Part shown: piece by piece, positions 2,805 through 38,263 of the stretch
How the letters are laid out: each line of letters starts with the position of its first letter
How positions within the stretch are numbered: position 1 is the stretch's first letter
Assembly (NCBI GenBank): GCA_964344775.1
Contig: CAYFOO010000001.1
Coordinates: 13,087 to 77,086 of the forward strand
Origin: an uncultured Candidatus Peribacteria bacterium
GTDB taxonomy: Bacteria; Patescibacteriota; Gracilibacteria; UBA4473
Direction of reading: 5' to 3'
DNA: 64,000 nucleotides
Position numbers and translations under genes: made by a program
The notes under the pieces: model-generated
Database searches by the model: none
What the model saw: the letters and a program-made list of their open reading frames with translations, nothing else
Told to the model about the DNA's origin: nothing

Positions 2805-3002
2805 AATTTTTTTGAAAAATTTTTAATTTTGTAATTTTTAATTTTATAAATAATTTTTTAAATCTTAATTTTTAAAGAAGAGTTTTAATTTAAATTTGTT
2901 TAGAATTTAAAAATTAGAGTTTATTTGACCATCGCCATTTGGCGAGGTTAGTCCGCCTCAAAGAGAGCGGTAGTAAAAATTTGTGCTTAAAAATTAAAAA
3001 TT
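2805..3002. repeat. AT-only composite heptamer repeat, copy A (contains a GC-module insertion)
   Basis: Shares an exact 38-mer (2816..2853 = 38095..38132) with copy B. Shares an exact 29-mer (2974..3002 = 36974..37002) with copy C. Confidence 0.8.
2927..2974. mobile_element. 48-nt GC-rich two-hairpin module inserted into AT-rich repeat copy A
   Basis: Copy C reads ...AAAAATTAGAAATTATTT|AAAAATTTGTGCTT... uninterrupted. Copy A has GACCATCGCCATTTGGCGAGGTTAGTCCGCCTCAAAGAGAGCGGTAGT at that junction. A sibling lies at 58617..58661. Confidence 0.6.
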
Positions 3003-10022: not shown

Positions 10023-10421
10023 CTAAATCTGTTTGTTGTTTGTTGCTTGTTGTTCGTTGATCAAAACTTCAACTTCTTTTTTCAGTTTCTTGAGGTTTTG
10101 CTCCCCAAAAGGAATTCCAATTATCCTCATCTCATCAATCTTTCCACTCTCCCGCATCAGTTTCAAAAAAAATCCCAAATCCAGATCGTGACACGTCGAC
10201 GATCGGGCCAACTCCAAATCCTCAATCCGATCCAAAATCTGAACCTTATCAATTCCCTGCACCACATCCATGATCCAAATTACCCCAGATTCTGAAAGAA
10301 TCTCATTCGGACTTTCTGCTTTCACAAACTCAAAATCCGGATGATTGATTTTGGCCGCTAAATTTTTAGCCACTTCATCACCGGCTACAAATTCGTTCCC
10401 AAAAACAAATATTTTTTGCAT
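10023..10421 (-). CDS. hydrogenase maturation endopeptidase (HycI/HyaD-like)
   Basis: Start moved to MQKIFVFGNEFVAGDE (the GNxxxxD motif). Further blocks are IWIMDVV and STCHDLDLG. The C-terminal NEQQATNNKQI is encoded by the heptamer array 10030..10064. Confidence 0.55.
   Translation of the reverse strand: MQKIFVFGNEFVAGDEVAKNLAAKINHPDFEFVKAESPNEILSESGVIWIMDVVQGIDKVQILDRIEDLELARSSTCHDLDLGFFLKLMRESGKIDEMRIIGIPFGEQNLKKLKKEVEVLINEQQATNNKQI
10030..10064. repeat. heptamer array TGTTTGT TGTTTGT TGCTTGT TGTTCGT TGATCAA
   Basis: In-phase units that encode the C-terminus of the endopeptidase. Confidence 0.7.
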
Positions 10422-10492
10422 TTTTATCTTTTCTATTGATAGATTATCCTTTAAGAACGCATCTTTCAATAATGAAATTTTTATTCTTCTTT

Positions 10493-10527
10493 ACTTTTGA
10501 CTTTTAACTTTTAACTTTCGACTTATT
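10493..10527. repeat. heptamer array ACTTTTG ACTTTTA ACTTTTA ACTTTCG ACTTATT
   Basis: Non-coding or 5'-coding copy of the ACTTTTG family, sitting exactly where a hypF start codon is expected. Confidence 0.75.
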
Positions 10528-12759
10528 CCCACGTACAAATTTACCATCACCGGAACAGTTCAGGGCGTCGGATTTCGACCATTTATTCTCCGTGAGGCAA
10601 AAAAAGCAGGGTTGGAAGGATATGTAAAAAATACAGGCATCGGCGTAGAAATCGTGGCCAACGATAAAAATAAAATTGCAAAAATCCTAGAGAATCTACC
10701 CCCTCTGGCCAAGATTGATCAAATTAAGATTCAAGAAATCAAAGATGAAAAATTTAAAGATTTTGTAATTCAAAATTCTTCCCGTACAGACGCCCAATTT
10801 GGGCGTCTCCATAATACAAAAACAAATTTTTCCATCCCCCCCGATATCACCACTTGTGATAAATGCCAAAAAGAATTATTTGATCGGGATGATCGAAGAT
10901 TTCAATATTTTTTCACGAGCTGCACCGACTGCGGTCCCAGATTTTCGATTACAGAGCAATTTCCCTTCGATCGGGAGAATACCACCTTGGAAAAATTCCC
11001 TATGTGCCCAGACTGCGAAAAAGAATACAAAAATCCGGAAGACCGAAGATTCCACGCACAAACTATCGCCTGTGAAAAATGTGGTCCTGTATTGTCCTTG
11101 TACTGTAAAGACACGCCACGGCGTGTCTCCACAGGAAAAAATGCCATAAAAAAAACAATTGATCTTCTCAAATCCGGAGAAATCATCGCCATCAAATCGA
11201 TCGGCGGATTTAGCTTGATCTGCCTGGCCGATGAAAAAACGGTCACAAAATTACGATCCCTCACCCACCGAAAAAACAAGCCTTTTGCCCTGATGGCCAA
11301 AGACATAAATATGATCAAAAATATTGTTCATATTTCTAAGAAAGAACAAGAAATTTTGGAGTCACGAGAGCGGCCAATCGTACTATTGCATCGTAAAGAC
11401 GCCCAAATTGGGCGTCTCAATCACATATCAGAAAACAGCTTCCTCGGATTTTGCCTCCCCTACACTCCCCTGCACCACCTAATTTTTGAGCATCTGGATG
11501 AACCCATCATCTTCACCTCATCCAATCTCCCCGGCATCCCAATTACCACAAAAAAAGAACAACAATTTGTCCCCCATGTCCTGGATTATGACCGGAAGAT
11601 CGCGAACTTTTCGGATGATTCGATCGTAAAAGTAATCGCTGATCATCCCCTCCTCATCCGCCGAAGTCGCGGATTTGTCCCCACAGAAATTCAGGTCCCT
11701 AAAAATTATCAAATATTTGAAGATGATATCCTCGCCGTCGGAGGAGAAATGAAAAACACCTTTTGTCTCAAAAAAGGAAACTCACTACTCCTTTCTCAAC
11801 ACCTAGGAAACACAGCCGGACTCGAGAACTTTGAAAATTTTCGCATCACGCTTGATAAATTTCTGAAATTTACTGGTGCCAAACCAAAGGTAATTCTGTG
11901 CGATAAAAATCCCTCCTTCAATACCCATCAATTTGCTCATGATTTTGCGAAGAAAAATAAGATTCAATGTGTGGAAATTCAACACCACGTGGCACACGTT
12001 TTTTCGACAGCACTCGAACACAATCTGACGAACTTCATCGGAATCGCTGCAGATGGCACCGGCTGGGGAGAGGGTAACAAAGTCTGGGGCGGAGAAGTTT
12101 TTCATAATGATCAGAGAATTGGAAAACTCGAAGATCAAACCCTCATGGGCGGGGACATCGCAAATAAAGAACCAGTCCGGATGCTCATCGGAATTTTATC
12201 CAAATTTTTAGATGAAAAAGAAATCATAAACCTGCTTCCAAATTTTAATGAAAAATTAATTAAAAATTGTATCAAACAAAAGAAAGAAAACTTCAACTGC
12301 ATTGAAAGCTCCAGTTGTGGACGGATCCTTGATTGCATATCTATCCTCCTCGGATTGGCGGATAAAAATGATTACGAAGGGCGATGTGCACAGATGTTAG
12401 AAATAAAAAATGACCTTCCAAAATTTAAAATTAAAAATTTAAAATTAAAAATTAAGGGAAAAGATAATTTAAATATTTTAGAAACTACTCCTCTTTTTCA
12501 ATTTCTCATTGAAAAGCTGGATAAAATCCCAAAAGAAGAGCTCGCACATCTAGCCCAACTCTACCTGGCTGAAGGGCTTCTGAAAATCACCCAAGATCAA
12601 AACCTCCCCATCGTCTGGAGCGGCGGCTGTGCTTACAACTCAATCATAACCAGCTTTTTGATTTCAAAAAATGTACTATTCAACAAAAACATTCCTTCTG
12701 GAGATGGGGGAATTTCTGCCGGACAAATTGCATACTTCCTTTGGAAAAAATTTAACTAA
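10525..12759 (+). CDS. hypF: [NiFe]-hydrogenase maturation carbamoyltransferase HypF
   Basis: Contains an acylphosphatase motif (GTVQGVGFRPF), two CxxC zinc-finger pairs, a YrdC-like block (IAIKSIGGFSL, KNKPFALM) and a Kae1-like C-terminus. The track start (TTG 10612) cuts the acylphosphatase motif. The frame is open from 10501 with no ATG/GTG/TTG, so ATT 10525 is a guess. Confidence 0.85.
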   Translation: MPTYKFTITGTVQGVGFRPFILREAKKAGLEGYVKNTGIGVEIVANDKNKIAKILENLPPLAKIDQIKIQEIKDEKFKDFVIQNSSRTDAQFGRLHNTKTNFSIPPDITTCDKCQKELFDRDDRRFQYFFTSCTDCGPRFSITEQFPFDRENTTLEKFPMCPDCEKEYKNPEDRRFHAQTIACEKCGPVLSLYCKDTPRRVSTGKNAIKKTIDLLKSGEIIAIKSIGGFSLICLADEKTVTKLRSLTHRKNKPFALMAKDINMIKNIVHISKKEQEILESRERPIVLLHRKDAQIGRLNHISENSFLGFCLPYTPLHHLIFEHLDEPIIFTSSNLPGIPITTKKEQQFVPHVLDYDRKIANFSDDSIVKVIADHPLLIRRSRGFVPTEIQVPKNYQIFEDDILAVGGEMKNTFCLKKGNSLLLSQHLGNTAGLENFENFRITLDKFLKFTGAKPKVILCDKNPSFNTHQFAHDFAKKNKIQCVEIQHHVAHVFSTALEHNLTNFIGIAADGTGWGEGNKVWGGEVFHNDQRIGKLEDQTLMGGDIANKEPVRMLIGILSKFLDEKEIINLLPNFNEKLIKNCIKQKKENFNCIESSSCGRILDCISILLGLADKNDYEGRCAQMLEIKNDLPKFKIKNLKLKIKGKDNLNILETTPLFQFLIEKLDKIPKEELAHLAQLYLAEGLLKITQDQNLPIVWSGGCAYNSIITSFLISKNVLFNKNIPSGDGGISAGQIAYFLWKKFN
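10788..10808. repeat. 21-nt palindrome AGACGCCCAATTTGGGCGTCT inside hypF
   Basis: 10+1+10 perfect. Translated as TDAQFGRL. Confidence 0.85.
11109..11128. repeat. 20-nt palindrome AGACACGCCACGGCGTGTCT inside hypF
   Basis: 9-bp arms. Translated as KDTPRRVS. Confidence 0.85.
11397..11417. repeat. 21-nt palindrome AGACGCCCAAATTGGGCGTCT inside hypF
   Basis: Same as 10788..10808 with the central base complemented, i.e. the opposite orientation. Translated as KDAQIGRL. Confidence 0.85.
12424..12458. repeat. heptamer array TTTAAAA TTAAAAA TTTAAAA TTAAAAA TTAAGGG inside hypF
   Basis: Translated as KFKIKNLKLKIKGK. Confidence 0.75.
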
Positions 12760-13183
12760 TTGTCCCACCAGCTTTTTCAACCGCTTTTTTTGCAGATTCG
12801 GAAATTGGCACCCCAGCGATCTCTACTTTTTTTGTAATTTTTCCGTTCCCCAAAATCTTAGCCATTTCTTTTTTACTTATTAGGTTTTTTGTCCGAAGAG
12901 AATCAATAGTCACCTTTTCTTTGTCTTTAAAATTTTCTTCCAAAACAGATAAATTAATGGCTCGGACCGCTACACGATTTGGATTTTTGAATCCTCGTAA
13001 TTTTGGCATTCGATCTAGAACTCCAGATTGTCCTCCTTCAAATCCAAGTCGTACACCACCTCCTGCTCGAGCGTTTTGCCCATTCATACCTCGACCAGAG
13101 AAAGTTCCTCTACCACTCCCATCACCTCGTCCAACTCTTTTTCGAGTTTTCCGTGCATTTGGCTTCAATTCATTTAGCTTCAT
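12752..13183 (-). CDS. rplO: 50S ribosomal protein L15
   Basis: RVGRGDGSGRGTFSGRGMNGQNARAGGG and the rest are typical L15. Last gene of the spc-like block. Confidence 0.95.
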   Translation of the reverse strand: MKLNELKPNARKTRKRVGRGDGSGRGTFSGRGMNGQNARAGGGVRLGFEGGQSGVLDRMPKLRGFKNPNRVAVRAINLSVLEENFKDKEKVTIDSLRTKNLISKKEMAKILGNGKITKKVEIAGVPISESAKKAVEKAGGTIS

Positions 13184-13212
13184 TGTTAATTAGTTGTTAG
13201 TTATTATTTTCA

Positions 13213-13240
13213 GGTTGTAGGTTATAGGTGGTAGGTGGGA
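13213..13240. repeat. heptamer array GGTTGTA GGTTATA GGTGGTA GGTGGGA
   Basis: Left arm of the S5|L15 spacer structure. Confidence 0.75.
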
Positions 13241-13275
13241 GGGATTTGTTTAAATTATGCCCTACCCTACTCCGC

Positions 13276-13295
13276 CGTCCCGAGGACTCGGGACG
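13276..13295. repeat. GC hairpin CGTCCCGAG-GA-CTCGGGACG
   Basis: Centre of the S5|L15 spacer. An inverted sibling with a shared flank lies at 54629..54656. Confidence 0.8.
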
Positions 13296-13304
13296 AAGGC
13301 CGGG

Positions 13305-13332
13305 CAACCTACAACTTCCCACTTACAACCTT
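13305..13332. repeat. heptamer array CAACCTA CAACTTC CCACTTA CAACCTT
   Basis: Reverse-complement family of 13213..13240 (right arm). Confidence 0.75.
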
Positions 13333-14265
13333 TTATTTTTTACTTTTAGCTTTCGACTTTTTGCCTGTTTCCTCTTTCTTCTTCGTTGTTTTCGCTTTTC
13401 CCTTGTCCTCCGTAGCTTTAGCGGAGGAGGATTCCTTCTTTACTGGTGCTTTCTTTTTTACTGCCTTTTTTTCCTCTTCTGTAGTTTTTTCACTTTTAAC
13501 TTTCGACTTTTGACTTTTGACTTCTTCACTTTCCACTTCTGCCTTTTTCTTGTTACTTGGTGGTGCTTCTGTTCGAAGTAAATTTAATGCTTCAAAAGTA
13601 GCATAAGCGGTATTCAACCTATTTCGTGAACCATGAGATTTAGAAAGCACATTTTTGATCCCTGCTAGGTCCAAAATAGTTCGTACTGATCCTCCTGCGA
13701 TCACCCCCGTACCTTCTGGTGCTGGAATTAAAATTACTTTGGTTGCTTTGAAGTAAGCTTCAATATCGTGAGGAATAGAATCTTCAAAAATTGGAACCGT
13801 CACTAATTTTTTCTTTGCCGCTGCTACAGCTTTTTGGATCCCTACCATCACTTCTGTTGCTTTTCCTACCCCAAGTCCGACTCGTCCTTTTTTGTCTCCA
13901 ATCGCTACCGTCACTTGAAATCGCATTCGTCGTCCTCCCTTCACCACACGAGTCACCCGAGAAATCCGGAGGATACTTTCTTCAAATTCCTTTTTTTCTC
14001 GTTCTCGTCCACCACCTCGACGACCACCACGACCACCTCTCTGACGTTTATCCTTGTGATCCCGGAGGTCTCTTTGATCTGGCTTCCCTTTTTCATCAGC
14101 CTTTTTTTCCTCTTTCTTCTCAGAAGCTTCCCTGTCGGTAGAAGCTGAAGCAGCGGAAGATTCTTCTGCCGATTTTTCAGTGGAAGCATCTTCAGGCTGT
14201 GTGGCCACCTCTGCTGGTGCAGCAGTTCCTTCTTTTTCCGGTGTTGTAGTAGCGTCTTCAGACAT
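13333..14265 (-). CDS. rpsE: 30S ribosomal protein S5 with long N- and C-terminal low-complexity extensions
   Basis: The core (ISRVTRVVKGGRRMRF...GTGVIAGGSVRTILDLAGIKNVLSKSHGS) is flanked by about 95 aa of acidic/RGG sequence and about 85 aa of Lys-rich tail. The tail is encoded by repeat modules. Confidence 0.9.
   Translation of the reverse strand: MSEDATTTPEKEGTAAPAEVATQPEDASTEKSAEESSAASASTDREASEKKEEKKADEKGKPDQRDLRDHKDKRQRGGRGGRRGGGREREKKEFEESILRISRVTRVVKGGRRMRFQVTVAIGDKKGRVGLGVGKATEVMVGIQKAVAAAKKKLVTVPIFEDSIPHDIEAYFKATKVILIPAPEGTGVIAGGSVRTILDLAGIKNVLSKSHGSRNRLNTAYATFEALNLLRTEAPPSNKKKAEVESEEVKSQKSKVKSEKTTEEEKKAVKKKAPVKKESSSAKATEDKGKAKTTKKKEETGKKSKAKSKK
13342..13362. repeat. heptamer array ACTTTTA GCTTTCG ACTTTTT (last codons of rpsE)
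   Basis: Encodes ...KSKAKSKK. Confidence 0.7.
13401..13431. repeat. CCTTGTCCTCCGTAGCTTTAGCGGAGGAGGA module inside the rpsE tail
   Basis: Family CCTGTCCGCCGTAGCCTTGGCGAAGGAGGA (42178..42210, 33288..33320). Translated as SSSAKATEDKG. Confidence 0.7.
13492..13526. repeat. heptamer array ACTTTTA ACTTTCG ACTTTTG ACTTTTG ACTTCTT inside the rpsE tail
   Basis: Encodes VKSQKSKVKS, the identical peptide to the carA insertion. Confidence 0.8.
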
Positions 14266-14341
14266 TATTATTTAGTTATAAATTTTTTCCTTAATTTTAA
14301 ACTTTGCATTTTAAATTTTTAATTTTGAAATTTTGATGAAA

Positions 14342-14680
14342 TCAAAACTTCAACCCTCCTTCGCGAGCTCCTTCTGCCAAGGCTTTTACTTGGCCATGGT
14401 ATTGATAACCATTTCGATCAAAGGCTACTTCTTCTACTTTTTTGGTCTTTGCCAATTTAGCAATTTCAGTCCCTACTTTTTTTGCTCCTTCGATTCCTGC
14501 TTTTCCTTTTAAGTTTGATGTTCCACAGAGTACTTTCCCAGTGCTGTCATCAACAATCTGAGCATAAATTGCTCGCAGAGAACGAAAAACAATCAGTCTA
14601 TTTCTTTCACTTGCACGAGCCTGTGCATGAGTTCTTCTCGCACGAGCTTGTCTTCTGTTAGCTTTTTCTTGGATATTCAT
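14342..14680 (-). CDS. rplR: 50S ribosomal protein L18
   Basis: 112 aa, typical L18 ([45 protein letters not shown]). Confidence 0.95.
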
Positions 14681-14742
14681 TTGTTCTTATTTACAAGATA
14701 TTTTCGTCACCCTGAGCGAAGTCGAAGGGTCTACCTTAATTT

Positions 14743-15300
14743 TTATGCTGCTTTAGCAGCGGATTTACCGGCTTTTCGAGCAACCTGCTCATCAATGTAC
14801 CGGATTCCTTTTCCTTTGTACGGCTCTGGTTTCCGATATTCACGAATATTAGCCGCTACCTGCCCTACCAATTGTTTATTGATTCCAGAAATCATAACAA
14901 TGTTATTATTTTTCTCATCTGGAAAACTGATTTCGATCCCTTCAGGAATGTTGAAATTGATTGGATGAGAAAATCCCAATTGCATTTCTAGAATTTTCCC
15001 CTTCAGGGCCACTCGATACCCTACTCCTTTGATCTCCAGAGTTTTGCTAAATCCATTTGATACCCCATCAACTAAATTTTGAGCAAGACTTTGATAAAGC
15101 CCATGTCGAGATTTAGCTTCCTTAGAATCATCTTTTCGACTTACCAAAAGTTGTCCATCTTCTATTTTTAGAGAAACATATTCTGGTTCAAATTTTTGGG
15201 TAAGTGTTCCCTTCGCTCCTTTTACAGACAATACATCATCCTGGATGGATATCTCCACTCCTGATGGTACAACTACTGGTTTATTTCCTATTCGAGACAT
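14743..15300 (-). CDS. rplF: 50S ribosomal protein L6
   Basis: 185 aa, begins MSRIGNKPVVVPSGVEI and contains LEIKGVGYRV. Confidence 0.95.
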   Translation of the reverse strand: MSRIGNKPVVVPSGVEISIQDDVLSVKGAKGTLTQKFEPEYVSLKIEDGQLLVSRKDDSKEAKSRHGLYQSLAQNLVDGVSNGFSKTLEIKGVGYRVALKGKILEMQLGFSHPINFNIPEGIEISFPDEKNNNIVMISGINKQLVGQVAANIREYRKPEPYKGKGIRYIDEQVARKAGKSAAKAA

Positions 15301-15303
15301 GAT

Positions 15304-15394
15304 TTAGTTATTAGTGGTTAGTTATTAGTGGTTAGTTTTTAGTTCTTAGTTTTTAATTCCGAAATCCGCATTTCGCATTCCGAAATTGAATTAG
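15304..15394. repeat. 13-unit in-phase heptamer array filling the whole rplF-rpsH spacer
   Basis: TTAGTTA TTAGTGG TTAGTTA TTAGTGG TTAGTTT TTAGTTC TTAGTTT TTAATTC CGAAATC CGCATTT CGCATTC CGAAATT GAATTAG. Confidence 0.85.
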
Positions 15395-15765
15395 CTTATT
15401 TCACATAATATTTCCCCCCCGATCTTCAATGCCCTGGCTTCATATCCCGTCATTACTCCTTTTGAAGTAGAAACGACCAATATTCCAAATCCGTTTGCTA
15501 CTTTCCGAATATCCTCTGCCCCAATGTAAATTCTCTGTCCTGGCTTCGAAACTCTTTTAAGGTTCATTGATTTTTCTGGTAATTCCAACTTGAGCACATC
15601 AAACTTATCAGCCTTTTCTTTTTTCACAGACTTCAAAAAATCATTTTTTTGCATTACTTTTGCAATTCGTTCTTTTGCTTGAGAATAAGGAATTTCTACC
15701 ATCCCCTGCTCAGCCATCTGAGCATTTCTGATTCGAGTGAGAAAATCTGCAATTGGATCGGTCAT
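15391..15765 (-). CDS. rpsH: 30S ribosomal protein S8
   Basis: 124 aa, begins MTDPIADFLTRIRNA and contains STSKGVMT. Confidence 0.95.
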   Translation of the reverse strand: MTDPIADFLTRIRNAQMAEQGMVEIPYSQAKERIAKVMQKNDFLKSVKKEKADKFDVLKLELPEKSMNLKRVSKPGQRIYIGAEDIRKVANGFGILVVSTSKGVMTGYEARALKIGGEILCEIS

Positions 15766-15769
15766 ATTA

Positions 15770-15846
15770 TTAGTTGTTAGAACTTAGAGCTTAGTTATTA
15801 GTTTTTTAATTCCGAAATCCGCATTCCGCGTTCCAAAATCGGATTA
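15770..15846. repeat. 11-unit in-phase heptamer array filling the whole rpsH-rpsN spacer
   Basis: TTAGTTG TTAGAAC TTAGAGC TTAGTTA TTAGTTT TTTAATT CCGAAAT CCGCATT CCGCGTT CCAAAAT CGGATTA. Confidence 0.85.
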
Positions 15847-16068
15847 CCACGATGATTTACGAACTCCTGGGATTTGCCCTTTTTCGGCGAGTTCTCGGAA
15901 GCAGCATCGGCAAATCCCAAAGTCTCGCATAAATCCATGAGGTCTTCCACAGAGTTTACAACGATTGTACGCTCGAGTAGAAAATTTTATCTTCCGCCCT
16001 TCCTTCTTCGCCTGAAGATGTCTGGCTAGAAATTTCTGAGATTTGTGAACGATTGCTTTTCGTGCCAT
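15844..16068 (-). CDS. rpsN: 30S ribosomal protein S14, zinc-binding (type Z)
   Basis: [10 protein letters not shown]...[22 protein letters not shown]. At 74 aa it is slightly longer than the usual type Z form. Confidence 0.9.
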
Positions 16069-16080
16069 TTTTTAAAAAAA

Positions 16081-16635
16081 TTATTCTTTCTTGAAAGGAA
16101 AATTAAAAGATTCAAGAAGTTTCAACGCGTGCTCTGAATTCTCAGAGGTGGTTACAATAGTTACTTGAAATCCAAAAGGTTGATTAAGCTCGTCACTCAG
16201 CTCCACTTCTGGGAAAACAGTATGCTCGGTAAACCCAATAGAACAGTTTCCTTTTTTATCAAAGATCCTTCTAGAAACCCCTCGGAAGTCTCGTACCCGT
16301 GGAAAAACCACATTGATCATCTTGTCGAGAAAATCATACGCTCGATCTTTTCGGAGAGTTACGGCTAATCCTACTGGCATTCCTTCTCGAAGCTTGAAGT
16401 TGGAAACAGAAAGCCGTGCTTTTCTGACAGATGGTTTTTGTCCTGTAATCTGTGTGATCGCGTTAGCCAAAAGTTCTTCGTGTTTTTTTCCAGTTCTGTG
16501 TAAATAAGAGCCCATCCCCACATTGATACAAATTTTCTCAATTCTTGGAACCTCCATTACATTTTTAAGTCCCAAATCCTTTTGCAATTTGGCAATTCCT
16601 GTTTTTCGAAAATCGGTAAGTAGATTTGATTTCAT
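16081..16635 (-). CDS. rplE: 50S ribosomal protein L5
   Basis: 184 aa, typical L5 blocks (NVMEVPRIEKICINVGMG, RDFRGVS). Confidence 0.95.
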   Translation of the reverse strand: MKSNLLTDFRKTGIAKLQKDLGLKNVMEVPRIEKICINVGMGSYLHRTGKKHEELLANAITQITGQKPSVRKARLSVSNFKLREGMPVGLAVTLRKDRAYDFLDKMINVVFPRVRDFRGVSRRIFDKKGNCSIGFTEHTVFPEVELSDELNQPFGFQVTIVTTSENSEHALKLLESFNFPFKKE

Positions 16636-16637
16636 GA

Positions 16638-16979
16638 TTATGCTTTCACAGCAGTTTTAGTTTTTTTAGCGAGAGGTAGGACTTTACCAGAAGATTTTGA
16701 AATACGTGTTTTTTTGCCGCTGTCACTAAGTTTGTATCCAATCCGTGAAGGTTTCTTTGTTTCTGGATCGATGATCGCAATGTTGGAAATATGGATTGGA
16801 GCAAAAAACTCTACTCGTTCTCCCGGCTCTCCACCTCGTGGTTTTACGTGTTTTACTTTCTTATTTATACCTTCAACTTGCACAAGACCTCGATTTTCAA
16901 AAATTTTGAAAATTGCACCTTGTTTTCCTTTGTCTTTACCGGTTTGTACGACTACGTTGTCTCCAATTCGAAATTTCAT
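16638..16979 (-). CDS. rplX: 50S ribosomal protein L24
   Basis: KOW motif (IGDNVVVQTGKDKGKQG). It is the first gene of the block, and no L14 lies upstream. Confidence 0.9.
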   Translation of the reverse strand: MKFRIGDNVVVQTGKDKGKQGAIFKIFENRGLVQVEGINKKVKHVKPRGGEPGERVEFFAPIHISNIAIIDPETKKPSRIGYKLSDSGKKTRISKSSGKVLPLAKKTKTAVKA

Positions 16980-17126
16980 GACGTGTAAAAATTGGCTTAA
17001 ATAAGATAAAAGCCGGCAGATTCTATGAAGAAATAGGTCTTTGTCAAGGAAATTTAGGGAGTAATTGCCGATTTTGGGTTCTCCACAAAAAAATAGTTAA
17101 AAATAAAACCACTTTCCCCTCTTTAT

Positions 17127-18119
17127 TTATCTATTCATTGCCACCCTCGTCCCCGTGAAATTCTTCATCGTCTCATCAATCAACCGGGCCAACTCATTAA
17201 TAAATGGTAAAAAGCTCTCTGATTTTTGTGAGGCTTTTTCTACTTGGCGAGCGGCCAAATAAAGATTTTCGAGTCCTGCTAGATTCCGCCCATGCCGGAA
17301 ATATCGCAAACTCTCTGCCAGATATGTCATCGTCCTGGAAATATATCGTGCCGCCACCGCATCAGCATTATTTTTTGTTCGAGTGAGTTTGTGATTGAGG
17401 CGAACAATTTTTTGGAGGTGGAATTCGGCTTTGTCCGGTTTTCCGGATTGGAGCAACTGAATGAATTGTTTGATTTCTCCCTGGAGCTCAACAAAGGTCT
17501 TGGTCATCTCATCCCCGTGAAAAAGATGAAGCTGTCGATAGGTCATCATGGCCACCTCTCTCCGAGAAAGTGGTTTGTACGGGCGATAAAATTCATCTGC
17601 TGGCAGAGAAGCAATTTGGTACTGCTTCGCGTAGGCAAAATGCGGTGCAAACCAAGCGTCAATCGGAACATCGAGGGCCACACCGGATCGTCGAGAAAAA
17701 TAGGTATCAAAATTCACCTTTGTCGCTCGAAAAAGAAAGGCCAAAAACTCTGCCTTGCTCACGGCATCATGAGGCCGAAAAGAATCACTTTTGTTGATGA
17801 TAATACGTTTTTCTGCAGCCGTTGCCACGACTGGAGCATACCATTCGTTTGGATCTACATCGGTGAAATAGGTTTCTCCCTCAAATCCTGATAAATCAGT
17901 AATCCCTCCCGACCGCATGGCGATCGTGAGTGCTTCGGCCCGAGTGACTATTTTTTCTGGATGGAAGTTCCCATCTCCGTATCCCCTCATAACACCCACT
18001 TCTCCCAGATGAGTAAAGGTGTGAAACTCTGGATCTTCTGGAGAAATATCATAAAAAGCAAATACAGGAGTGACCGTAAAACAAAGTAAAAAGATAAAAG
18101 ATCTCCAGTCACACCTCAT
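17127..18119 (-). CDS. secreted SLH-domain protein
   Basis: Signal peptide followed by two SLH-like repeats (FYDISPEDPEFHTFTHLGEVGVMRGYGDGNFHPEKIVTRAEAL; FTDVDPNEWYAPVV...SFRPHDAVSKAEFLAFL). Confidence 0.6.
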   Translation of the reverse strand: MRCDWRSFIFLLCFTVTPVFAFYDISPEDPEFHTFTHLGEVGVMRGYGDGNFHPEKIVTRAEALTIAMRSGGITDLSGFEGETYFTDVDPNEWYAPVVATAAEKRIIINKSDSFRPHDAVSKAEFLAFLFRATKVNFDTYFSRRSGVALDVPIDAWFAPHFAYAKQYQIASLPADEFYRPYKPLSRREVAMMTYRQLHLFHGDEMTKTFVELQGEIKQFIQLLQSGKPDKAEFHLQKIVRLNHKLTRTKNNADAVAARYISRTMTYLAESLRYFRHGRNLAGLENLYLAARQVEKASQKSESFLPFINELARLIDETMKNFTGTRVAMNR

Positions 18120-18208
18120 TACTTTTGAGTATAATTTTTGTTCTCATTTGGTCAACTTTTTTGTACAAAAAAAGAGTTGCACGTTTTAAAATATATTTCA
18201 AAGAAGTT

Positions 18209-18550
18209 TTAAGCAGCTTGCCTTACTATTTCTTCTTCATCTGCTATCAATGCCTCAACTTCTCCCAAAGTATAATAAGATACTCCATCAATTTCATTAT
18301 TAACTTTGTAGTGAATAACAAGCATAGAAGTTTCTTCTGCAGATCCACCATCCTTCTGTTCTCCTTTATGACGAAACAGAAGTTCAACTTTTTCTCCATC
18401 AGGCCCAATAACACCAATCACCTTGCTCATAACCAATCTTTCCTGGTCGTGTAAAGCTTCTGCTGGTTCCATTTTTTGAAATATATATCCTTTCCTCGCA
18501 AGGTGAGCTCCCAAAGGATCAAAAAGCCTGTTCAATTCAGCTTGTTCCAT
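18209..18550 (-). CDS. hypothetical protein
   Basis: 113-aa ORF with protein-like composition. No recognisable domain. Confidence 0.5.
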   Translation of the reverse strand: MEQAELNRLFDPLGAHLARKGYIFQKMEPAEALHDQERLVMSKVIGVIGPDGEKVELLFRHKGEQKDGGSAEETSMLVIHYKVNNEIDGVSYYTLGEVEALIADEEEIVRQAA

Positions 18551-18653
18551 ATTTTTAATTAGTTAAATAATAAAAGTAAAGCAAATATAATAAAAAAATA
18601 CCTTTTGTCAAGTCTTTTTTAAAACAAATCATATTTTACGCAACACAAAACCC

Positions 18654-18682
18654 TTGTAAAAAAGGTGTTTTTCCGCTATAAT
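18654..18682 (+). promoter_or_regulatory. sigma70-like promoter TTGTAA-17-TATAAT
   Basis: Counted spacing is 17 nt. It lies 18 nt upstream of the ATG at 18700. Confidence 0.5.
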
Positions 18683-18699
18683 TTCCCGATTTTTAGAAA

Positions 18700-19860
18700 A
18701 TGATAAAAAAATTACTACTTATCGGGATTGGACTCTGGATGTGTGTCCTTGGGCAGACGTATGCACAAACTGGTGAAATAAAAGGCAAAAAGCATACCTT
18801 TACTATCACCGGATACTATTCCCCTCTCCCAAACCAAAGCTACTACGTCACCGGCAGCTACACCGGAGATATTCGACTAAATGGACGTGGGATCCGTGGT
18901 GCAGATGGGACGAATGTGTATCCCGGAATGATTGCCGCCCCCACTTCCTATCCCTTTGGGACAAAAATTTGTATTCCAAACTTCGGATGTGGAACCGTCC
19001 ATGATCGAGGAGGTGCGATTGTCGAAAAAGGAAAAAGACAACTAGCCAAACACGATCGGCTCGATCTCTGGATGGGATATGGAGATGAAGGACTCCGTCG
19101 AGCTCTTGCCTGGGGAGTGCCACACCTCGAATGTGAAATGTTTGGATCGGATGCACCAGTCGAGGATTCAGTAAACTTTCAGGTACCACCACAGCTATAC
19201 CAGGTTCTGGATGTCCCAAGCAAACAAAGATTTACAAAAAATCTAAAGCGGGGATACAAAGGCGACCTAGTAAAATCCCTTCAAAAAGCACTGAGAAAAC
19301 TGGAATTTTATAGAGGCCCTGTGGACGGACTTTTTGATTACAATGTAAAAAACAGTGTACTCGCCTTCCAGAAGAAATACTTCGTGGTGTACAGTGAAGA
19401 TGATGCCGGAGCTGGAGTTTTTGGACCGAAAACACGACAAACATTGGAAGAGGAACTCCACCGATTTGAAATTCAAGAAAAAATTCGAAACCTCTGGGAA
19501 GATTTTCATTTCGAAGAAAAGATGAAATTCGGAATGCGAAACCAATCGGTGCTCAAACTTCAAGAAGTCTTGGTCCAAGGAGAATTCCTCGATCACGTAC
19601 CTACCGGATACTTCGGTGAGAAAACGAAGGCCGCACTGATTGAATTCCAATTGGCTCACAACCTCATCAAAAACAAAAATCAAAAAGTAGCTGGCAGGGT
19701 GGGACCGAAAACAACAGAACTCTTGAACAATATTTTAGCTCAAAAAAAGGAAGCTATTGTGGCAGAAAAACCGAAAATCTTGGCGTACAAAAAAACACGG
19801 CTAAAGTTGCAATTCTTTGCGGATAAGTTAGAACCTGAAAATTTGTACGCACAAAAATAA
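18700..19860 (+). CDS. secreted 3D-domain (MltA/RlpA-like) muralytic protein with peptidoglycan-binding repeats
   Basis: Signal peptide and a 3D-type block (YPGMIAAPTSYPFGTKICIP...GTVHDRGGAIV...DRLDLWMG). PG_binding_1-like repeats follow (LQKALRKLEFYRGPVDGLF..., LQEVLVQGEFL...GYFGEKT). Confidence 0.7.
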   Translation: MIKKLLLIGIGLWMCVLGQTYAQTGEIKGKKHTFTITGYYSPLPNQSYYVTGSYTGDIRLNGRGIRGADGTNVYPGMIAAPTSYPFGTKICIPNFGCGTVHDRGGAIVEKGKRQLAKHDRLDLWMGYGDEGLRRALAWGVPHLECEMFGSDAPVEDSVNFQVPPQLYQVLDVPSKQRFTKNLKRGYKGDLVKSLQKALRKLEFYRGPVDGLFDYNVKNSVLAFQKKYFVVYSEDDAGAGVFGPKTRQTLEEELHRFEIQEKIRNLWEDFHFEEKMKFGMRNQSVLKLQEVLVQGEFLDHVPTGYFGEKTKAALIEFQLAHNLIKNKNQKVAGRVGPKTTELLNNILAQKKEAIVAEKPKILAYKKTRLKLQFFADKLEPENLYAQK

Positions 19861-19871
19861 AAAGAATCCTA

Positions 19872-19920
19872 ATTTTCAAATTCGTAATTCGTAATTTGGC
19901 ATTTGTAATTAATTGCTACT
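19872..19920. repeat. heptamer array ATTTTCA AATTCGT AATTCGT AATTTGG CATTTGT AATTAAT TGCTACT
   Basis: Lies between the convergent stops of 18700..19860 and dnaJ. Confidence 0.75.
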
Positions 19921-20981
19921 CACTGCTTTTTCGCACTTTCCAAAAGCTCTTTCAACTTCCCCGAAACCTTTTTTGGCATTTCATACTCCACCTTCACCAG
20001 ATGATCCCCCTTGTGTCCAGAGCGATGCACTCCTTTTCCTTTTATCTGAAGAAATTGCCCATCACGAGTATTTTCTGGAACTTTGAGATCCACCTTCCCC
20101 CAAAAAGTCTCTATTTCAAACGTTCCTCCCAAAATCGCATCAAAGACAGAAATTTTTAGAGTAGAAAGCAGGTCATTCCCTCGACGGTGAAACTTCGAAG
20201 AAGGTTGTACCTGAATGTGTGCATAGAGATCCCCGTGTGATCCTCCATGTCGTCCAGCTTCTCCCTGCCCAGGAATTTTCAAGGTTTCCCCATCATCCAC
20301 ACCGGCAGGGATTTTTATTTTTATATCTTTTTTTTGCTGCACTCTTCCCTCCCCCTGACATTTGGAACACGTCCGTTCGAAGGATTTCCCTCTTCCCTTA
20401 CAGCTCGGACAAGGTGCCTGCTGTGCCACCTGCCCAAAAGGCGTCTGAAATTGCTGGGAAACCATACCACTTCCAGCACATTGTGAACAATTTTTTTGAT
20501 CAAAACCTCCAGCCCCCTTACATTCTTCACAGGTTTCTAGATTTCTGGATGTAAAAGTTTTTGTCACCCCTTTCATTGCTTCGTCAAAATCTAGCTCGAC
20601 GGCCACCTCCAGATCCGCTCCCCGTGTATACTGTGGTCTGGATCGAGCCCCTCCCATGCCACCCCCCCCACCAAAGAAGCTGGAAAAAATATCCTCAAAA
20701 CCTCCAAAATCCTGCGAAGAAAATCCTCCAGAAAAACCTCCTCCTGCAGCACCTCCTCCCCCACCTCCAAATCCAGGGCCTGCTGATCCAAACTGATCGT
20801 ACTGGGCTTTTTTTTGATCATCAGAGAGCACTTCGTAGGCCTGGCTGATCTCTTTGAATTTCTTCTCATCTCCCCCTTTATCCGGATGATGTTCTTTACT
20901 CAGCTTACGAAAAGCTTTTTTTATTTCGTCCTTGGAAGCATTTTTTGAGACCCCCAGGATGTCATAATAACTCTTTGTCAT
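19920..20981 (-). CDS. dnaJ: chaperone DnaJ
   Basis: J domain with HPD (KEHHPDKGG), a G/F-rich linker and four CxxCxGxG repeats. Confidence 0.95.
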   Translation of the reverse strand: MTKSYYDILGVSKNASKDEIKKAFRKLSKEHHPDKGGDEKKFKEISQAYEVLSDDQKKAQYDQFGSAGPGFGGGGGGAAGGGFSGGFSSQDFGGFEDIFSSFFGGGGGMGGARSRPQYTRGADLEVAVELDFDEAMKGVTKTFTSRNLETCEECKGAGGFDQKNCSQCAGSGMVSQQFQTPFGQVAQQAPCPSCKGRGKSFERTCSKCQGEGRVQQKKDIKIKIPAGVDDGETLKIPGQGEAGRHGGSHGDLYAHIQVQPSSKFHRRGNDLLSTLKISVFDAILGGTFEIETFWGKVDLKVPENTRDGQFLQIKGKGVHRSGHKGDHLVKVEYEMPKKVSGKLKELLESAKKQ

Positions 20982-21092
20982 TAGCCGAACTGTATGAATT
21001 TTGGCAATAAAATCAAGAGAGTGCTAAAAATAAATTTGACATTTACACAAAAACAGAGCAAAATAATTTTGTATTTTTAATGTTTTGAAAAA

Positions 21093-21557
21093 ATGACCAT
21101 TGAACAATCACAACCATTTGATCTGGAAGTATTTAAAGCAGAGTTTGCTCAATTAATGAGAGAATATGCTGAATTGTTTTTTAAAAGATCTCACTCGAAA
21201 ATAATACATGAAGATGAATTTGAAAGAGTCGAACGAAAAATTGAAAATTTTTTTGTCGGTCAAGAAGTCCCTTTGAAACAGGAAGGGAGTTTTTTATTGG
21301 CAGCATTCGAAAAAATTGATCAGGATTTTATGAAATTTTGTTTGGAAGAAATCCCTAGAGGGATGAATCTGTGGGATCATTTAGTTGCTCAAAGAATAAA
21401 AAGAAAAATTGAAGAAGCTACTGCACCTTTAAATGAAGGATTAAAAAAAATTGGAAAGAAATTTGAAAAGACGACCGATATGTTATCAAAAAGAAGGGAA
21501 AATATTAAGGTAATGTTAAATGAAATGGATGATGAAAATCCTACAACTCCCGGATAA
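21093..21557 (+). CDS. hypothetical protein
   Basis: 154-aa helical charged ORF. Its 3' end overlaps the carA 3' end convergently. Confidence 0.5.
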   Translation: MTIEQSQPFDLEVFKAEFAQLMREYAELFFKRSHSKIIHEDEFERVERKIENFFVGQEVPLKQEGSFLLAAFEKIDQDFMKFCLEEIPRGMNLWDHLVAQRIKRKIEEATAPLNEGLKKIGKKFEKTTDMLSKRRENIKVMLNEMDDENPTTPG

Positions 21558-22632
21558 ATTCATCAAAAAGATATGCCGCATCCTCCGGCCCCGCACACGC
21601 CTCCGGATGAAACTGTACGGAAAAGATTGGTTTTCCTTTGTGTCGGATACCTTCAACAGACCCATCATTGAGATTTTTGAACCAAACCTCAAAATCAGGC
21701 GGCAAAGAATCCCCATCCACCTCGTATCCGTGATTTTGCGAAGTAATTAAACACCTTTTTGTACCACTTTTGACTTTTGACTTTTGACTTTTGACTTGAA
21801 TTACCGGCTGATTCACCCCCCGATGTCCGTATTTCATCTTTTTTGTTTTTCCTCCCGCAGCAAGTGAAAGAATCTGATTTCCCAAGCAAATCCCAAAAAT
21901 CGGTAATTCCCTTGTCATCGACTGCCGAGCAATTTCGATGGTCTCCACTACTTTTTCTGGATCTCCTGGCCCATTGGAAATGAAAATGCCATCAATCTTC
22001 TCTCCCAGATCAAAAGGTGGATGATTGTACGGCATTCGTAAAATTCGGATTCCTCGCTGAAGAAAATTTCGTAGAATTCCATTCTTCGCTCCACAATCCA
22101 TAAAAGCAATCGTTTTTCCGGTCGGATTTTCCGGTTCCAGAATTTCCATTCCTTCCGGAGAAACAGAGGGGACAAATCTTCCCCCCAGTTCATCTTCAAA
22201 TTTCACTGGTTTTTTGTCGCCCAATTTACCCAAGATTGTTCCCTTTTCTCGTAGAATTTGTGTTAACTCCCGTGTATCAATCCCAGAAATCGCTGGAATA
22301 CCTTGCTCTTTGAGCCAATCCATAAAACTTTTCACTGCTTCGCAATGAGAGAACTTCAACGATTCTTCGGTTAAAATGACTCCTCGAACCCAGATTTTTT
22401 TACTTTCAAATGTTTGATCTACGTTGTCCTGAAAAGACTTTACTTCCGGCACACCATAGTTCCCAATCAGCGGAAAAGTGAACGTCACGATTTGTCCAAA
22501 ATAGCTCGGATCCGTGAGAGTTTCGAGATATCCGGTCATTCCGGTAGTGAAAACAACCTCCCCTTCGGCTTCGCTCTCTGCTCCGAAAGAGGTACCTTCA
22601 AATGTTTTTCCGTTCGCGAGAAAGAGTTTCAT
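21541..22632 (-). CDS. carA: carbamoyl-phosphate synthase small (glutaminase) subunit, with in-frame repeat insertion
   Basis: Typical CarA blocks (GICLGNQIL, GHRGVNQPV, ITSQNHGYEV, FSVQFHPEA). VKSQKSKVKS is encoded by four exact ACTTTTG units at 21766..21793. No carB is adjacent. Confidence 0.9.
   Translation of the reverse strand: MKLFLANGKTFEGTSFGAESEAEGEVVFTTGMTGYLETLTDPSYFGQIVTFTFPLIGNYGVPEVKSFQDNVDQTFESKKIWVRGVILTEESLKFSHCEAVKSFMDWLKEQGIPAISGIDTRELTQILREKGTILGKLGDKKPVKFEDELGGRFVPSVSPEGMEILEPENPTGKTIAFMDCGAKNGILRNFLQRGIRILRMPYNHPPFDLGEKIDGIFISNGPGDPEKVVETIEIARQSMTRELPIFGICLGNQILSLAAGGKTKKMKYGHRGVNQPVIQVKSQKSKVKSGTKRCLITSQNHGYEVDGDSLPPDFEVWFKNLNDGSVEGIRHKGKPIFSVQFHPEACAGPEDAAYLFDEFIREL
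21766..21798. repeat. (ACTTTTG)x4 exact + ACTTG inside carA
   Basis: Exact tandem units counted directly. Confidence 0.9.
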
Positions 22633-22638
22633 AGGATT

Positions 22639-22673
22639 TGGTATCTGGTATTTAGTATATGGTATGTGGGGAA
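22639..22673. repeat. heptamer array TGGTATC TGGTATT TAGTATA TGGTATG TGGGGAA
   Basis: In the carA-gatA spacer. Confidence 0.75.
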
Positions 22674-24138: not shown

Positions 24139-24208
24139 TTTGTTAGAAGCTTGAATTTTAAAAATTAAAAATTATTTGGAATTTGGAAATTGGTACTTGG
24201 AATTTTTA

Positions 24209-30400: not shown

Positions 30401-30435
30401 TTTGTTGTTCTTTGTTATTTGTTATTTGTTCTCTG
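30401..30435. repeat. heptamer array TTTGTTG TTCTTTG TTATTTG TTATTTG TTCTCTG
   Basis: Just downstream of the PBP2 stop. Confidence 0.75.
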
Positions 30436-33264: not shown

Positions 33265-33287
33265 AATAATCTAAGTTCTAAGCTCTA

Positions 33288-33320
33288 CCTGTCCGCCGAA
33301 GCTCGTAGAGCGAAGGGGGG
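33288..33320. repeat. CCTGTCCGCCGAAGCTCGTAGAGCGAAGGGGGG module
   Basis: Non-coding copy, downstream of dnaK, of the family that is translated in rpsE and in the NDP-sugar transferase. Confidence 0.65.
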
Positions 33321-36863: not shown

Positions 36864-37003
36864 TTTTTAATTTCCAATTTTTAATTTTTAAATAAATTTT
36901 AAATCTTAATTTTTAAGGTTTTATATTTTAGTGAAGTAATTTTAGTTTAAGATTTTAAAAATTAGAAATTATTTAAAAATTTGTGCTTAAAAATTAAAAA
37001 TTT
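36864..37003. repeat. AT-only composite heptamer repeat, copy C (empty site)
   Basis: CAATTTT TAATTTC CAATTTT TAATTTT TAAATAA ATTTTAA ATCTTAA TTTTTAA ..., ending in the 29-mer shared with copy A. Confidence 0.8.
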
Positions 37004-38087: not shown

Positions 38088-38215
38088 AAATTAGAAAATT
38101 TTTAATTTTGTAATTTTTAATTTTATAAATAAATCCTAATTTTTAATTTTTAAAAATAGCAAAAAACAGTCTCTAAGAATTTGACTTTAAAAATTTGAGC
38201 ATTAAAAATTCCTTA
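38088..38215. repeat. AT-only composite heptamer repeat, copy B
   Basis: Contains the exact 38-mer AAAATTTTTAATTTTGTAATTTTTAATTTTATAAATAA shared with copy A. Boundaries are approximate. Confidence 0.75.
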
Positions 38216-38263
38216 CAACTTACCACCTCCCACCTACAACTTTTTAAAAAACTAACAACTAAT
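38215..38263. repeat. heptamer array ACAACTT ACCACCT CCCACCT ACAACTT TTTAAAA AACTAAC AACTAAT
   Basis: ACAACYT family, immediately upstream of ndk. Confidence 0.75.

Follow-up and report, generated by a model that had tools for sequence, protein, structure and literature searches.

Here we describe tandem arrays of degenerate heptanucleotides in the intergenic DNA of an uncultured Candidatus Peribacteria bacterium, analysed in a 64,000-nucleotide stretch of contig CAYFOO010000001.1 (the window), with a focus on two spacers of a ribosomal-protein operon, S8-L6 and S14-S8. One array family, in which a CTAA core is followed by three filler bases (CTAA-N3), could be demonstrated against a neutral benchmark to be kept by purifying selection on its phased core, the filler being neutral, and this family probably aids ribosomes in starting translation where a Shine-Dalgarno (SD) site is missing. 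For the arrays as a whole the sequence patterns suggest a two-layer explanation, which in our judgement has an even chance of being correct: the repeats would be born by slippage and would in part have been co-opted as unstructured initiation leaders and hairpin arms. What appears to be new is the presence of this heptad class in bacteria that belong to the candidate phyla radiation (CPR), the selection on a phased CTAA core in an SD-poor genome, and a two-arm ladder arrangement found across lineages.

Both focal spacers are made of heptads, 13 in a single register between S8 and L6 (15301-15390) and 11 between S14 and S8 (15766-15843), as a preceding sequence-only reading of the window had proposed. 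The closest relative, L171 (protein identity 77% for L6 and 94% for DnaK), keeps long spacers with CTAA arrays before S8, L6, S5 and L15; more distant relatives have spacers of 7-36 nt without CTAA arrays. The neutral benchmark was provided by 4-fold degenerate sites in seven flanking genes, of which 179 of 364 (0.49) are identical to L171. In the S14-S8 spacer all five CTAA cores are unchanged (20/20 bases, P = 7e-7), as are 41 of the 42 positions of the adjoining block composed of a GGAAT/GCG module plus an A-run (P = 5e-12). The filler bases of the same array match at 8 of 15 positions, as at neutral sites. Since the filler, too, would have become uniform under concerted evolution or recent transfer, purifying selection on the phased core is the simplest explanation of this pattern.

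The triple CTAA-N3-CTAA-N3-CTAA was counted 20 times, with 0.27 expected. In forward orientation the family stands before the starts of L15, L6, S8 and the gene hyp198, with two-unit copies before ndk and the CNNM gene; in the five array-bearing leaders (L15, L6, S8, ndk and hyp198) the C of the final core is at -7 to -10. ACTAA has 26 sense copies and a single antisense copy in the 65 leaders of the window, and it is present in 15 genes (6.5 +/- 2.3 expected, P = 0.0005). The sense to antisense ratio is 17:0 in relatives with a period-7 signal and 6:3 in those without it. Across the leaders, the period-7 component keeps a fixed phase relative to the ATG (P = 0.023 for A and 0.009 for C).

The focal spacers lie inside the operon L24-L5-S14-S8-L6-L18-S5-L15, which has a single strong promoter-like site and no terminator-like sites in its array-bearing spacers; its arrays are therefore almost certainly transcribed. 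SD-like motifs were found in 6 of the 65 genes. The leaders are A-rich and G-poor (A 0.43 and G 0.10 at -1 to -15) and depleted in ATG (10 versus 24.6 expected), and their mean profile shows A-frequency peaks at -3 to -6, -12/-13 and -19/-20, A-frequency troughs at -9, -15/-16 and -22 to -24, and C-peaks at -9/-10, -16 and -23. In the SD-independent initiation of Flavobacterium johnsoniae, A at -3, -6, -12 and -13 has a positive effect, structure is low, AUG is depleted, and bS1 is suspected to contact positions -12 to -15 (Baez 2019, PMC6847099). The A enrichment at -3, -6 and -12/-13, the AUG depletion and the low SD usage observed here constitute a compositional match to Bacteroidia initiation regions, for which, unlike the window, no tandem-repeat organisation is described (PMC6847099).

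Because the A-peaks fall at the positions that promote SD-independent initiation in F. johnsoniae, we infer a landing-pad role for the CTAA family. In this second layer of the explanation, (A)CUAA-N2-3 arrays in sense orientation would be retained directly upstream of starts in a genome where SD sites are nearly unused. They would form a G-poor, unpaired and AUG-free leader, would set A-rich patches every 7 nt at -3 to -6, -12/-13 and -19/-20 whatever the unit number, and would thereby act as ribosome landing pads or translation enhancers. A candidate reader is bS1 or a cold-shock-type single-strand RNA-binding protein with a footprint of about 7 nt; in CPR bacteria bS1 mostly contains 3-4 S1 domains, and bS21 is often missing from the Gracilibacteria/Peregrinibacteria clade. 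Inverted pairs and self-complementary modules past the upstream stop would fold into hairpins or ladder stems in which the leader of the next gene serves as the 3' arm, and such a ladder stem could steady the 3' end of the upstream cistron or couple downstream initiation to upstream termination. A bolder and rather unlikely generalisation is that phased (A)CUAA arrays, together with their TAACTGA/AACTA kin in Beggiatoaceae, Cyanobacteria and Flavobacteriia, represent one SD-independent ribosome-recruitment element. Tandem sites of about 7 nt for bS1 or a cold-shock-type protein would then set ribosome loading and the start register, reverse complements past the upstream stop would couple the translation of neighbouring cistrons, and the whole would be a modular intercistronic expression element, repeatedly born from heptad slippage in lineages without SD pairing.

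Several results weigh against the two-layer explanation. The evidence for constraint comes from one family and essentially from one orthologous spacer pair, plus the orientation statistics. An agnostic test of concentrated degeneracy across 18 arrays was not significant (p = 0.12), so that a conserved core in all arrays is not supported. When the five CTAA-array genes are left out, phase-locking to the ATG drops to P ~0.1, i.e. a general ATG-phased 7-nt wave independent of the CTAA arrays is not significant, and the power of the A-profile is as high at periods 8-9 as at 7. In a cross-phylum comparison the sense bias of ACTAA in Flavobacteriales (84:44) is about that given by leader base composition, and an oriented motif beyond composition was thus rejected for this order. 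The notion that heptads occur only in SD-poor lineages is likewise ruled out as a general rule, the array-rich Saccharibacteria loci having high SD usage (0.67-0.83; overall p = 0.48). Among loci with GC below 0.45 there is a weak association between arrays and SD poverty (p = 0.019), which has only four positive loci and is not relied on. Moreover, the AATTCGT and AT-only families occur in both orientations or in convergent spacers, and the leader role therefore cannot apply to them. As regards the hairpin part, no covariation was found for the GGAAT module (alignment fold of five copies, covariation term +0.44), and for several of the ladder folds z is marginal (-1.6 to -1.9). With no covariation and no Rfam match in the window, the module does not qualify as a covariation-supported structured RNA.

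The period-7 signal itself is strong. In 6.2 kb of intergenic DNA, autocorrelation gave a lag-7 match of 0.360 versus 0.288 +/- 0.006 in dinucleotide shuffles (z 11.8), with harmonics at lags 14 and 21 (z 8.9 and 4.8), and z rises to 14.7 when spacers are defined by database gene calls. Coding DNA shows period 3 only, with a lag-7 match of 0.258 against 0.36 in intergenic DNA. At lag 7 a detector independent of annotation counted 30 arrays, where shuffled sequence had 0.68 +/- 0.8 and lags 5, 6 and 8-11 gave 0-8, and in a stricter scan lag 7 covered 5.5 nt/kb, lags 4-6 and 8-13 nothing. About 45 of the 111 rows reported by Tandem Repeats Finder for the window have period 7 or 14, including 15303-15355 (found at period 7 and, with 92% match, at period 14) and 15809-15834. 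The excess of period 7 over shuffled controls that the sequence-only reading had predicted is therefore real (z 11.8-14.7, with no such signal in coding DNA), nearly all the arrays it listed were recovered by Tandem Repeats Finder, and its observations that word families recur at several loci in both orientations, and that two families can adjoin without loss of phase, hold good. Its statement that intergenic DNA is built from such arrays, and carries them in nearly every spacer, was too strong as to extent: of the 51 spacers that are 30 nt or longer, 17 reach significance individually (p <= 0.01) and 21 contain at least one array, and the arrays cover 785 of 6755 intergenic bases (12%). Similarly, the AT-only arrays it had included are heptad-like but weaker, at 67-69% match and with indels; they represent copies of an AT-rich palindromic element that is dispersed in the window.

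That the arrays are an assembly or polishing artefact, a condition under which the earlier claim would have collapsed, has a virtually negligible probability. The window is contig k127_84941 of ENA assembly ERZ930070; this megahit contig and the Logan assemblies from runs ERR2281802 and ERR2281803 are, taken jointly, base-identical to it over 13300-21795 and 13300-15834. Unit number is the same in all three consensus assemblies, which derive from two sequencing runs and agree completely through the arrays, the arrays are shorter than the reads, and orthologous arrays exist in an independent NCBI genome. The artefact reading fails because independent assemblies are identical through the arrays. 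Its sole hint is that both Logan contigs (loci L082 and L083) stop at exactly the same base, 13300, inside the structured, repeat-rich S5-L15 spacer, an end which may reflect an assembly break caused by repeats or strain variation.

As to their origin, the pattern is consistent with a first layer in which a genome-specific 7-nt slippage or duplication process would seed short arrays wherever they are tolerated, that is, in spacers of every type and, inserted in frame, in the surface loops and tails of proteins. The lag-7 match is 0.379 in tandem, 0.351 in convergent and 0.335 in divergent spacers, compared with 0.27-0.31 at other lags; orthologous spacers differ in unit number (7 vs 4, 1 vs 5, ~3 vs 5); and Tandem Repeats Finder detects young, perfect arrays. 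The word AGTCAAA is present in one spacer and inside two genes, in a loop of CarA and in the tail of S5. Individual words are shared by 3-6 loci, and entire AT-rich and GC-hairpin modules are found dispersed. That arrays occur between convergent genes, and inside genes as insertions that keep the frame, argues for slippage as a general origin. All arrays might be neutral, microsatellite-like debris of a 7-nt slippage bias, of the polymerase-contact kind put forward by Mrazek 2007, tolerated in spacers, and this would fit their patchiness among close relatives, their presence in every spacer type and inside genes, their unit-number turnover, the outcome of the agnostic column test and the lack of a general link to SD usage. 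Neutrality leaves unexplained why the CTAA cores (20/20) and the adjoining block (41/42) are intact where filler (8/15) and 4-fold sites (0.49) are saturated, why the leader orientation bias is 26:1 and 17:0 when composition predicts about 2:1, and why the arrays end close before the ATG. Pure neutrality is already contradicted for the CTAA family by the comparison with L171, and as a reading of all arrays we consider it unlikely. The idea that the arrays are insulators, in which CTAA (UAA) or TTAG (UAG) every 7 nt would place stops in all frames and clear stray ribosomes, appears very improbable. It would account for forward arrays before starts, for reversed ones past the AhpC, L27 and DnaK stops and in Flavobacteriaceae, for a period coprime with 3, and for the two stop codons of MacGregor's TAACTGA. 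The conserved core exceeds a stop codon, however, with the C and often the preceding A invariant; the GGAATGC, CCTACAA, ACCAAAT and ACAAACA families contain no stop trinucleotide in sense; and orientation, which should be irrelevant to an insulator, matters here. The stop-free families and the core beyond the stop codon rule it out as a general account.

It is possible, though we are inclined to doubt it, that structural elements of RNA or DNA come foremost, with inverted arrays building stop- and start-proximal stems and unpaired CTAA leaders being secondary. The two-arm design occurs in the window, in the close relative, upstream of dnaK, and in three other lineages (Flaviramulus, Saccharimonadales and one further lineage), with fold z of -4.0 to -1.6 for two-arm spacers in other lineages. 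Folds in the window reach z -5.3 for L27-hyp198 and for the AhpC 3' region, -3.8 for the S8-L6 module and -3.2 for S5-L15. The 5' arms begin 0-9 nt past stops (reversed UUAG copies start 0-1 nt past the AhpC and L27 stops and about 45 nt past that of DnaK), and the sole substitution in the module changes a U.G pair to C-G. On the other hand, the CTAA arrays of the focal spacers have no partner and are unpaired in the predicted fold, covariation is absent, 4-bp helices with 3x3 internal loops are weak, several z values are marginal, and complementary arrays could come from inverted duplication. Because of the absent covariation and the marginal folds, we rank the ladder role as a plausible and non-exclusive rival of the two-layer explanation; modelled folds suggest that stop-proximal stems may stabilise mRNA 3' ends, be processed by RNase III or act as translational-coupling switches. 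Modules that are dispersed, transcribed and able to form hairpins between the genes of an operon are familiar from repetitive extragenic palindromes (REP), bacterial interspersed mosaic elements (BIME) and Correia-type elements. Like these, the window contains dispersed hairpin-forming intergenic modules, and the arrays could be remnants of such mobile or mosaic repeats, or of miniature inverted-repeat transposable elements, with heptad-structured arms. Near-identical dispersed modules (29/29 for one pair of loci and 84% along 61 nt for another), a GGAAT module in four copies, one of them within a coding sequence, GC-rich hairpins common to several spacers, inverted AATTCGT arrays around the 23S-IVP/Avd-like gene, and spacers longer than in relatives speak for this. 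We nevertheless find it distinctly unlikely: no transposase, target-site duplication, terminal inverted repeats or full-length consensus was recognised in the 64 kb, the copies have words in common and not long colinear sequence, and REP/BIME and Correia elements, unlike the arrays, are not known to have heptad periodicity, while no defined ends or target duplications were found here. Varying unit numbers and 14-nt higher-order repeats favour in-situ slippage over mobile elements.

Some further explanations were rejected. The boxA consensus GYTCTTTAACAA has 14 matches at no more than 2 mismatches (19 expected) and none in any array, and a boxA/Nus resemblance of GTTCTAACAACTAA is thereby ruled out. 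Rfam families and tRNAs gave no match in the spacers, and Rfam no hit in the whole window. An alternative genetic code, which would inflate the intergenic DNA, is excluded as well: TGA is a stop in 11 of 65 genes (TAA 44, TAG 10), as in the standard code, and coding density is 89%.

The arrays are a known class of bacterial heptanucleotide tandem repeats in a new host lineage. The sequence-only reading had the class right in calling them similar to the short tandemly repeated repetitive (STRR) sequences of heterocystous cyanobacteria (Calothrix/Anabaena; cited in PMC4692102), but these are not the only analogue, as it had supposed: heptanucleotides are reported to be the most abundant long simple-sequence repeat (LSSR) in most prokaryotic genomes (Mrazek 2007, as cited in PMC4679880 and PMC4692102), and the TAACTGA and GGGAATC repeats are further precedents. 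In the account of the two citing articles, LSSR heptanucleotides are sporadic among genomes and are ascribed to polymerase slippage with a 7-nt contact. Like the LSSRs of Mrazek, Guo and Shah (2007), as presented there, the arrays consist of head-to-tail 7-nt units, with period 7 over-represented, and are mainly intergenic and sporadic; unlike here, that survey predates CPR genomes and, to the extent that it is relayed, offers no functional reading of start-codon-proximal arrays. With STRR sequences the arrays have in common the tandem heptanucleotide units and word families at 3-6 intergenic loci each; they differ in the host, which is not a cyanobacterium, and in being short (3-8 units) and degenerate. 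The STRR1-3 words, which we take to be CCCCAGT, TTGGTCA and CAACAGT, have no tandem occurrence in the window. The literal STRR and TAACTGA words are both ruled out as the unit, neither being tandem in the window.

The closest functional parallel is offered by TAACTGA repeats of marine Beggiatoaceae, Cyanobacteria and some Bacteroidetes, which lie mostly in forward orientation a few nucleotides upstream of start codons and inside ribosomal-protein operons where SD sites are rare, and for which a role in translation was proposed, with S1, Csp and CsrA as possible readers (MacGregor 2015, PMC4679880). The CTAA family alone resembles them in being forward and start-proximal (in L15, L6, S8, ndk and hyp198); the rarity of SD sites at repeat-bearing starts, the location inside a ribosomal-protein operon, the occasional reversed sets right past stops and the 7-nt indels between orthologous sets are further similarities. 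The common word here, TAACTAA, is one base from TAACTGA, which itself occurs as two singletons and never in tandem. Whereas TAACTGA is a fixed heptamer, the units of the window combine a conserved 4-5-nt core with free filler; the host is CPR-like, and purifying selection on the core is indicated here and not in MacGregor 2015 (PMC4679880). GGGAATC/GGGANTN arrays of Xanthomonas and GGGGA(C/T)T arrays of Nostoc, including inverted pairs, form a third precedent (Rehm 2015, PMC4692102). As in the window, these arrays (typically of about 4 units) have conserved and variable heptad positions, recur between the same gene pairs of related species with variation in length and sequence, and include some inverted pairs capable of forming stem-loops. 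The Xanthomonas and Nostoc repeats are G-rich and quadruplex-capable, the arrays described here G-poor and rich in A, T and C; G-quadruplex formation is excluded here because the arrays are G-poor.

For comparison with the window, 137 ribosomal-operon loci drawn from many phyla (L6 no more than 57% identical) served as controls, close relatives being obtained via a protein database. At least one strict array was present in 15 of the 137 control loci. The densest belonged to Saccharimonadales (20 nt/kb, compared with 11 here), and next in density came loci of other Saccharibacteria, Flavobacteriaceae and Muribaculaceae. The sequence-only reading had allowed that its claim of novelty would fall if the same arrays proved common in unrelated genomes; given these 15 loci, one of them denser than the window, the claim fails, and the observation stands. 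In the literature searched we found no paper that pairs CPR with heptanucleotide repeats. The occurrence in CPR may thus be unreported so far, as a new host and not as a new kind of repeat. One Saccharimonadales locus (L022; Ca. Saccharimonadales, JBAQIV010000069.1, 3200-19400) has ten heptad arrays, all near-perfect, that lie both within ribosomal-protein genes and in the gaps separating them, with the recurring words ATGCAAC (3 loci), CAAAATC (2) and AGTCAAG (2); it comes from an SD-using lineage, and its ATGCAAC arrays place ATG in all three frames.

The CPR-like host suggested by the sequence-only reading was borne out by the nearest named DnaK and L6 relatives, which belong to Ca. Gracilibacteria, Peribacteria and Peregrinibacteria. 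The best named DnaK matches in the protein database (~80% identity) are from Ca. Gracilibacteria, then Peribacteria and Peregrinibacteria; L6 reaches 58-63% among named and up to 77% among unnamed matches, and no more than 57% in species-representative genomes and metagenome contigs among the matches listed. The relatives of this genome are patchy for the lag-7 signal, which has z 14.7 in the window, 6.7 in GCA_964344165.1 and 5.8 in L086, and about 0 in L085, L087, L172, L173 and L174, at similar distance.

These findings bear on how bacteria without SD pairing pick and load start codons, and on why 7-nt repeats accumulate in bacterial intergenic DNA, a question standing since 1990 and 2007. 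The S14-S8 spacer amounts to a natural experiment, in which a 4-nt core in every 7 nt is perfectly conserved, the filler is at saturation and the array lies just before the ATG. The earlier observation of repeats upstream of genes becomes a specific sequence-and-phase hypothesis, the class is extended to CPR bacteria (a Gracilibacteria-like lineage and Saccharimonadales), and its on/off spread among close relatives could help to find the responsible factor. Should the arrays prove functionless, the window would merely add another host for a known repeat class. The individual arrays and associated features are given in Table 1.

Table 1. Heptad arrays and associated features of the window (fold energies in kcal/mol).
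Feature	Position	Strand	Context	Predicted fold
CTAA-N3 array, 7 units, partly a 14-nt higher-order repeat	15304-15356	-	leader of rplF (L6), last core C at -7	wholly unpaired in spacer fold
GGAAT/GCG heptad module	15356-15385	-	3 nt past rpsH stop	hairpin of 11+2 bp; -12.6, z -3.76, 0/200 shuffles as low
CTAA-N3 array, 5 units	15770-15801	-	leader of rpsH (S8), last core C at -8	
GGAAT/GCG module plus A-run	15802-15843	-	3' of rpsN (S14) stop; 41/42 identical to L171	weakly favourable, z -0.5
Promoter-like TTGACA-16-TAGAAT	17020-17047	-	upstream of rplX (L24); motif also in relatives L172 and L173	
S5-L15 spacer (inverted repeat I8)	13184-13332	-	5' arm of GGTTGTA-type heptads (13305-13332), GC-rich inner hairpin	-48.1, z -3.2
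S5-L15 spacer, 3' arm of CCTACAA-type heptads	13208-13242	-	followed by unpaired CTAA leader (13190-13207) before rplO	
AAAATTN heptad array	14293-14336	-	L18-S5 spacer; single ACTAA at -13 of rpsE	
L27-hyp198 spacer	58593-58790	+	UUAG heptads (58593-58617) directly past L27 stop	arms pair as outer ladder stem; -55.8, z -5.27, 0/200 shuffles
CUAA array of L27-hyp198 spacer	58754-58785	+	complement of the UUAG heptads; ends 6 nt before ATG	
Reversed family (UUAG in sense RNA)	43092-43123	-	1 nt past AhpC stop, then terminator-like hairpin	pairs with next gene's leader, z -5.28
Reversed (UAG-type) heptads	33271-33288	-	~45 nt past dnaK stop, before hairpin	
CYTACMA heptads, then two CTAA units	38212-38263	+	ndk leader, last core C at -9	
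AAAACTA-type array	60717-60751	-	CNNM-gene leader (Tandem Repeats Finder)	
Inverted heptad arrays (repeats I11, I12)	61257-61345	+	S19-L22 spacer; AAGTTGT-type 61257-61293, CTACAAC-type 61311-61345	-21.1, z -1.7
ACCAAAT/ACCAGAT-type array, A/C-rich in sense	22636-22669	-	carA leader, ends 3 nt before ATG	
TCCAAAT- and AATTTTT-type arrays	24151-24205	-	GatC-GatA spacer (Tandem Repeats Finder, detector)	
AATTCGT-family array (D4)	19874-19905		convergent spacer (detector, Tandem Repeats Finder)	
Further AATTCGT-family (D4) copies	41912-41957, 43669-43705, 44072-44103	both orientations		
ACAAACA array	10030-10062	-	overlaps last codons of a 132-aa open reading frame, upstream of Fer4 gene	
GTCAAAA/GTTAAAA array (D2)	10488-10524	-	divergent spacer; word also inside two genes	
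GTCAAAA heptads	13487-13547	-	inside rpsE, part of Lys-rich C-terminal tail (KSQKSKVKS...); segment absent in closest relative	
Perfect AGTCAAA x4.6	21766-21797	-	inside carA, loop insertion VKSQKSKVKS, absent in relative L173	
Near-perfect TTCAAAA x5	57262-57297	-	spans one gene's stop and the next gene's Lys-rich N-terminus (signal-anchor-like)	
GGAAT/GCG module copy (D8)	42526-42557	-	in nucleotidyltransferase coding sequence, in frame (ISDFGMRNAEL)	
AT-only heptad-like array, AT-rich palindromic element	2805-3002		copies at 36862-37002 and 38088-38210	
TTGTTAT array	30401-30435		convergent spacer, 4 nt from stop of a penicillin-binding protein gene	

Several of these features deserve comment. 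All copies of the AT-only element form long palindromes, imperfect in sequence, that lie upstream of gene starts, namely those of Ham1, LeuA and ndk; 2974-3002 and 36974-37002 are identical at 29/29 positions (D19), and 2816-2876 and 38095-38155 match at 84% over 61 nt (D1). GC-rich hairpin sequences (CCATCGCCATTYGGCGAGG, CCTTCGTCCCGAG..CTCGGGAC and CCTGTCCGCCGAAG) were seen by eye to be common to unrelated spacers and to the S8-L6 spacer of the relative. The pairs 2925-2945/58618-58638, 13270-13300/54630-54665 and 33292-33305/L171 3053-3066 point to a second dispersed module family of GC-rich hairpins. Within the sugar-phosphate nucleotidyltransferase gene (42513-42556), 20 nt are identical to the GGAAT/GCG module found between cistrons. 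The gene of a 23S-rRNA-IVP/four-helix-bundle protein (Avd-like, TIGR02436; 43697-44047) is placed in a cassette-like manner between inverted AATTCGT/ACGAATT arrays (43669-44103). Ribosomal protein S5 (13333-14265) has 310 aa compared with 232-270 aa in relatives, with a long acidic N-terminal extension and the Lys-rich C-terminal tail, partly encoded by heptads.

The ribosomal-protein cluster is split into two parts about 45 kb apart (60985-63965 and 12752-17126). In the S19-L22-S3 part (+) the next open reading frame, of 487 aa and without family match, stands in place of L16, and the L24 to L15 run (-) has its own promoter, with an SLH-domain gene upstream in place of L14. Relatives L172 and L173 have this break in common, and L174 keeps a contiguous L16-L15 operon. 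The cumulative GC-skew has its minimum at about 48000-52000, where the predominant gene strand changes from - to +, which suggests a replication origin nearby; no dnaA gene was seen in the window. For a CPR-like genome the number of genes for biosynthesis or central metabolism is unusually high, including LeuA, CarA, GatCA, HypF, aconitase, dehydroquinase and pyruvate kinase, and the window also encodes large SLH-domain surface proteins and an ATPase resembling type IV secretion system coupling proteins.

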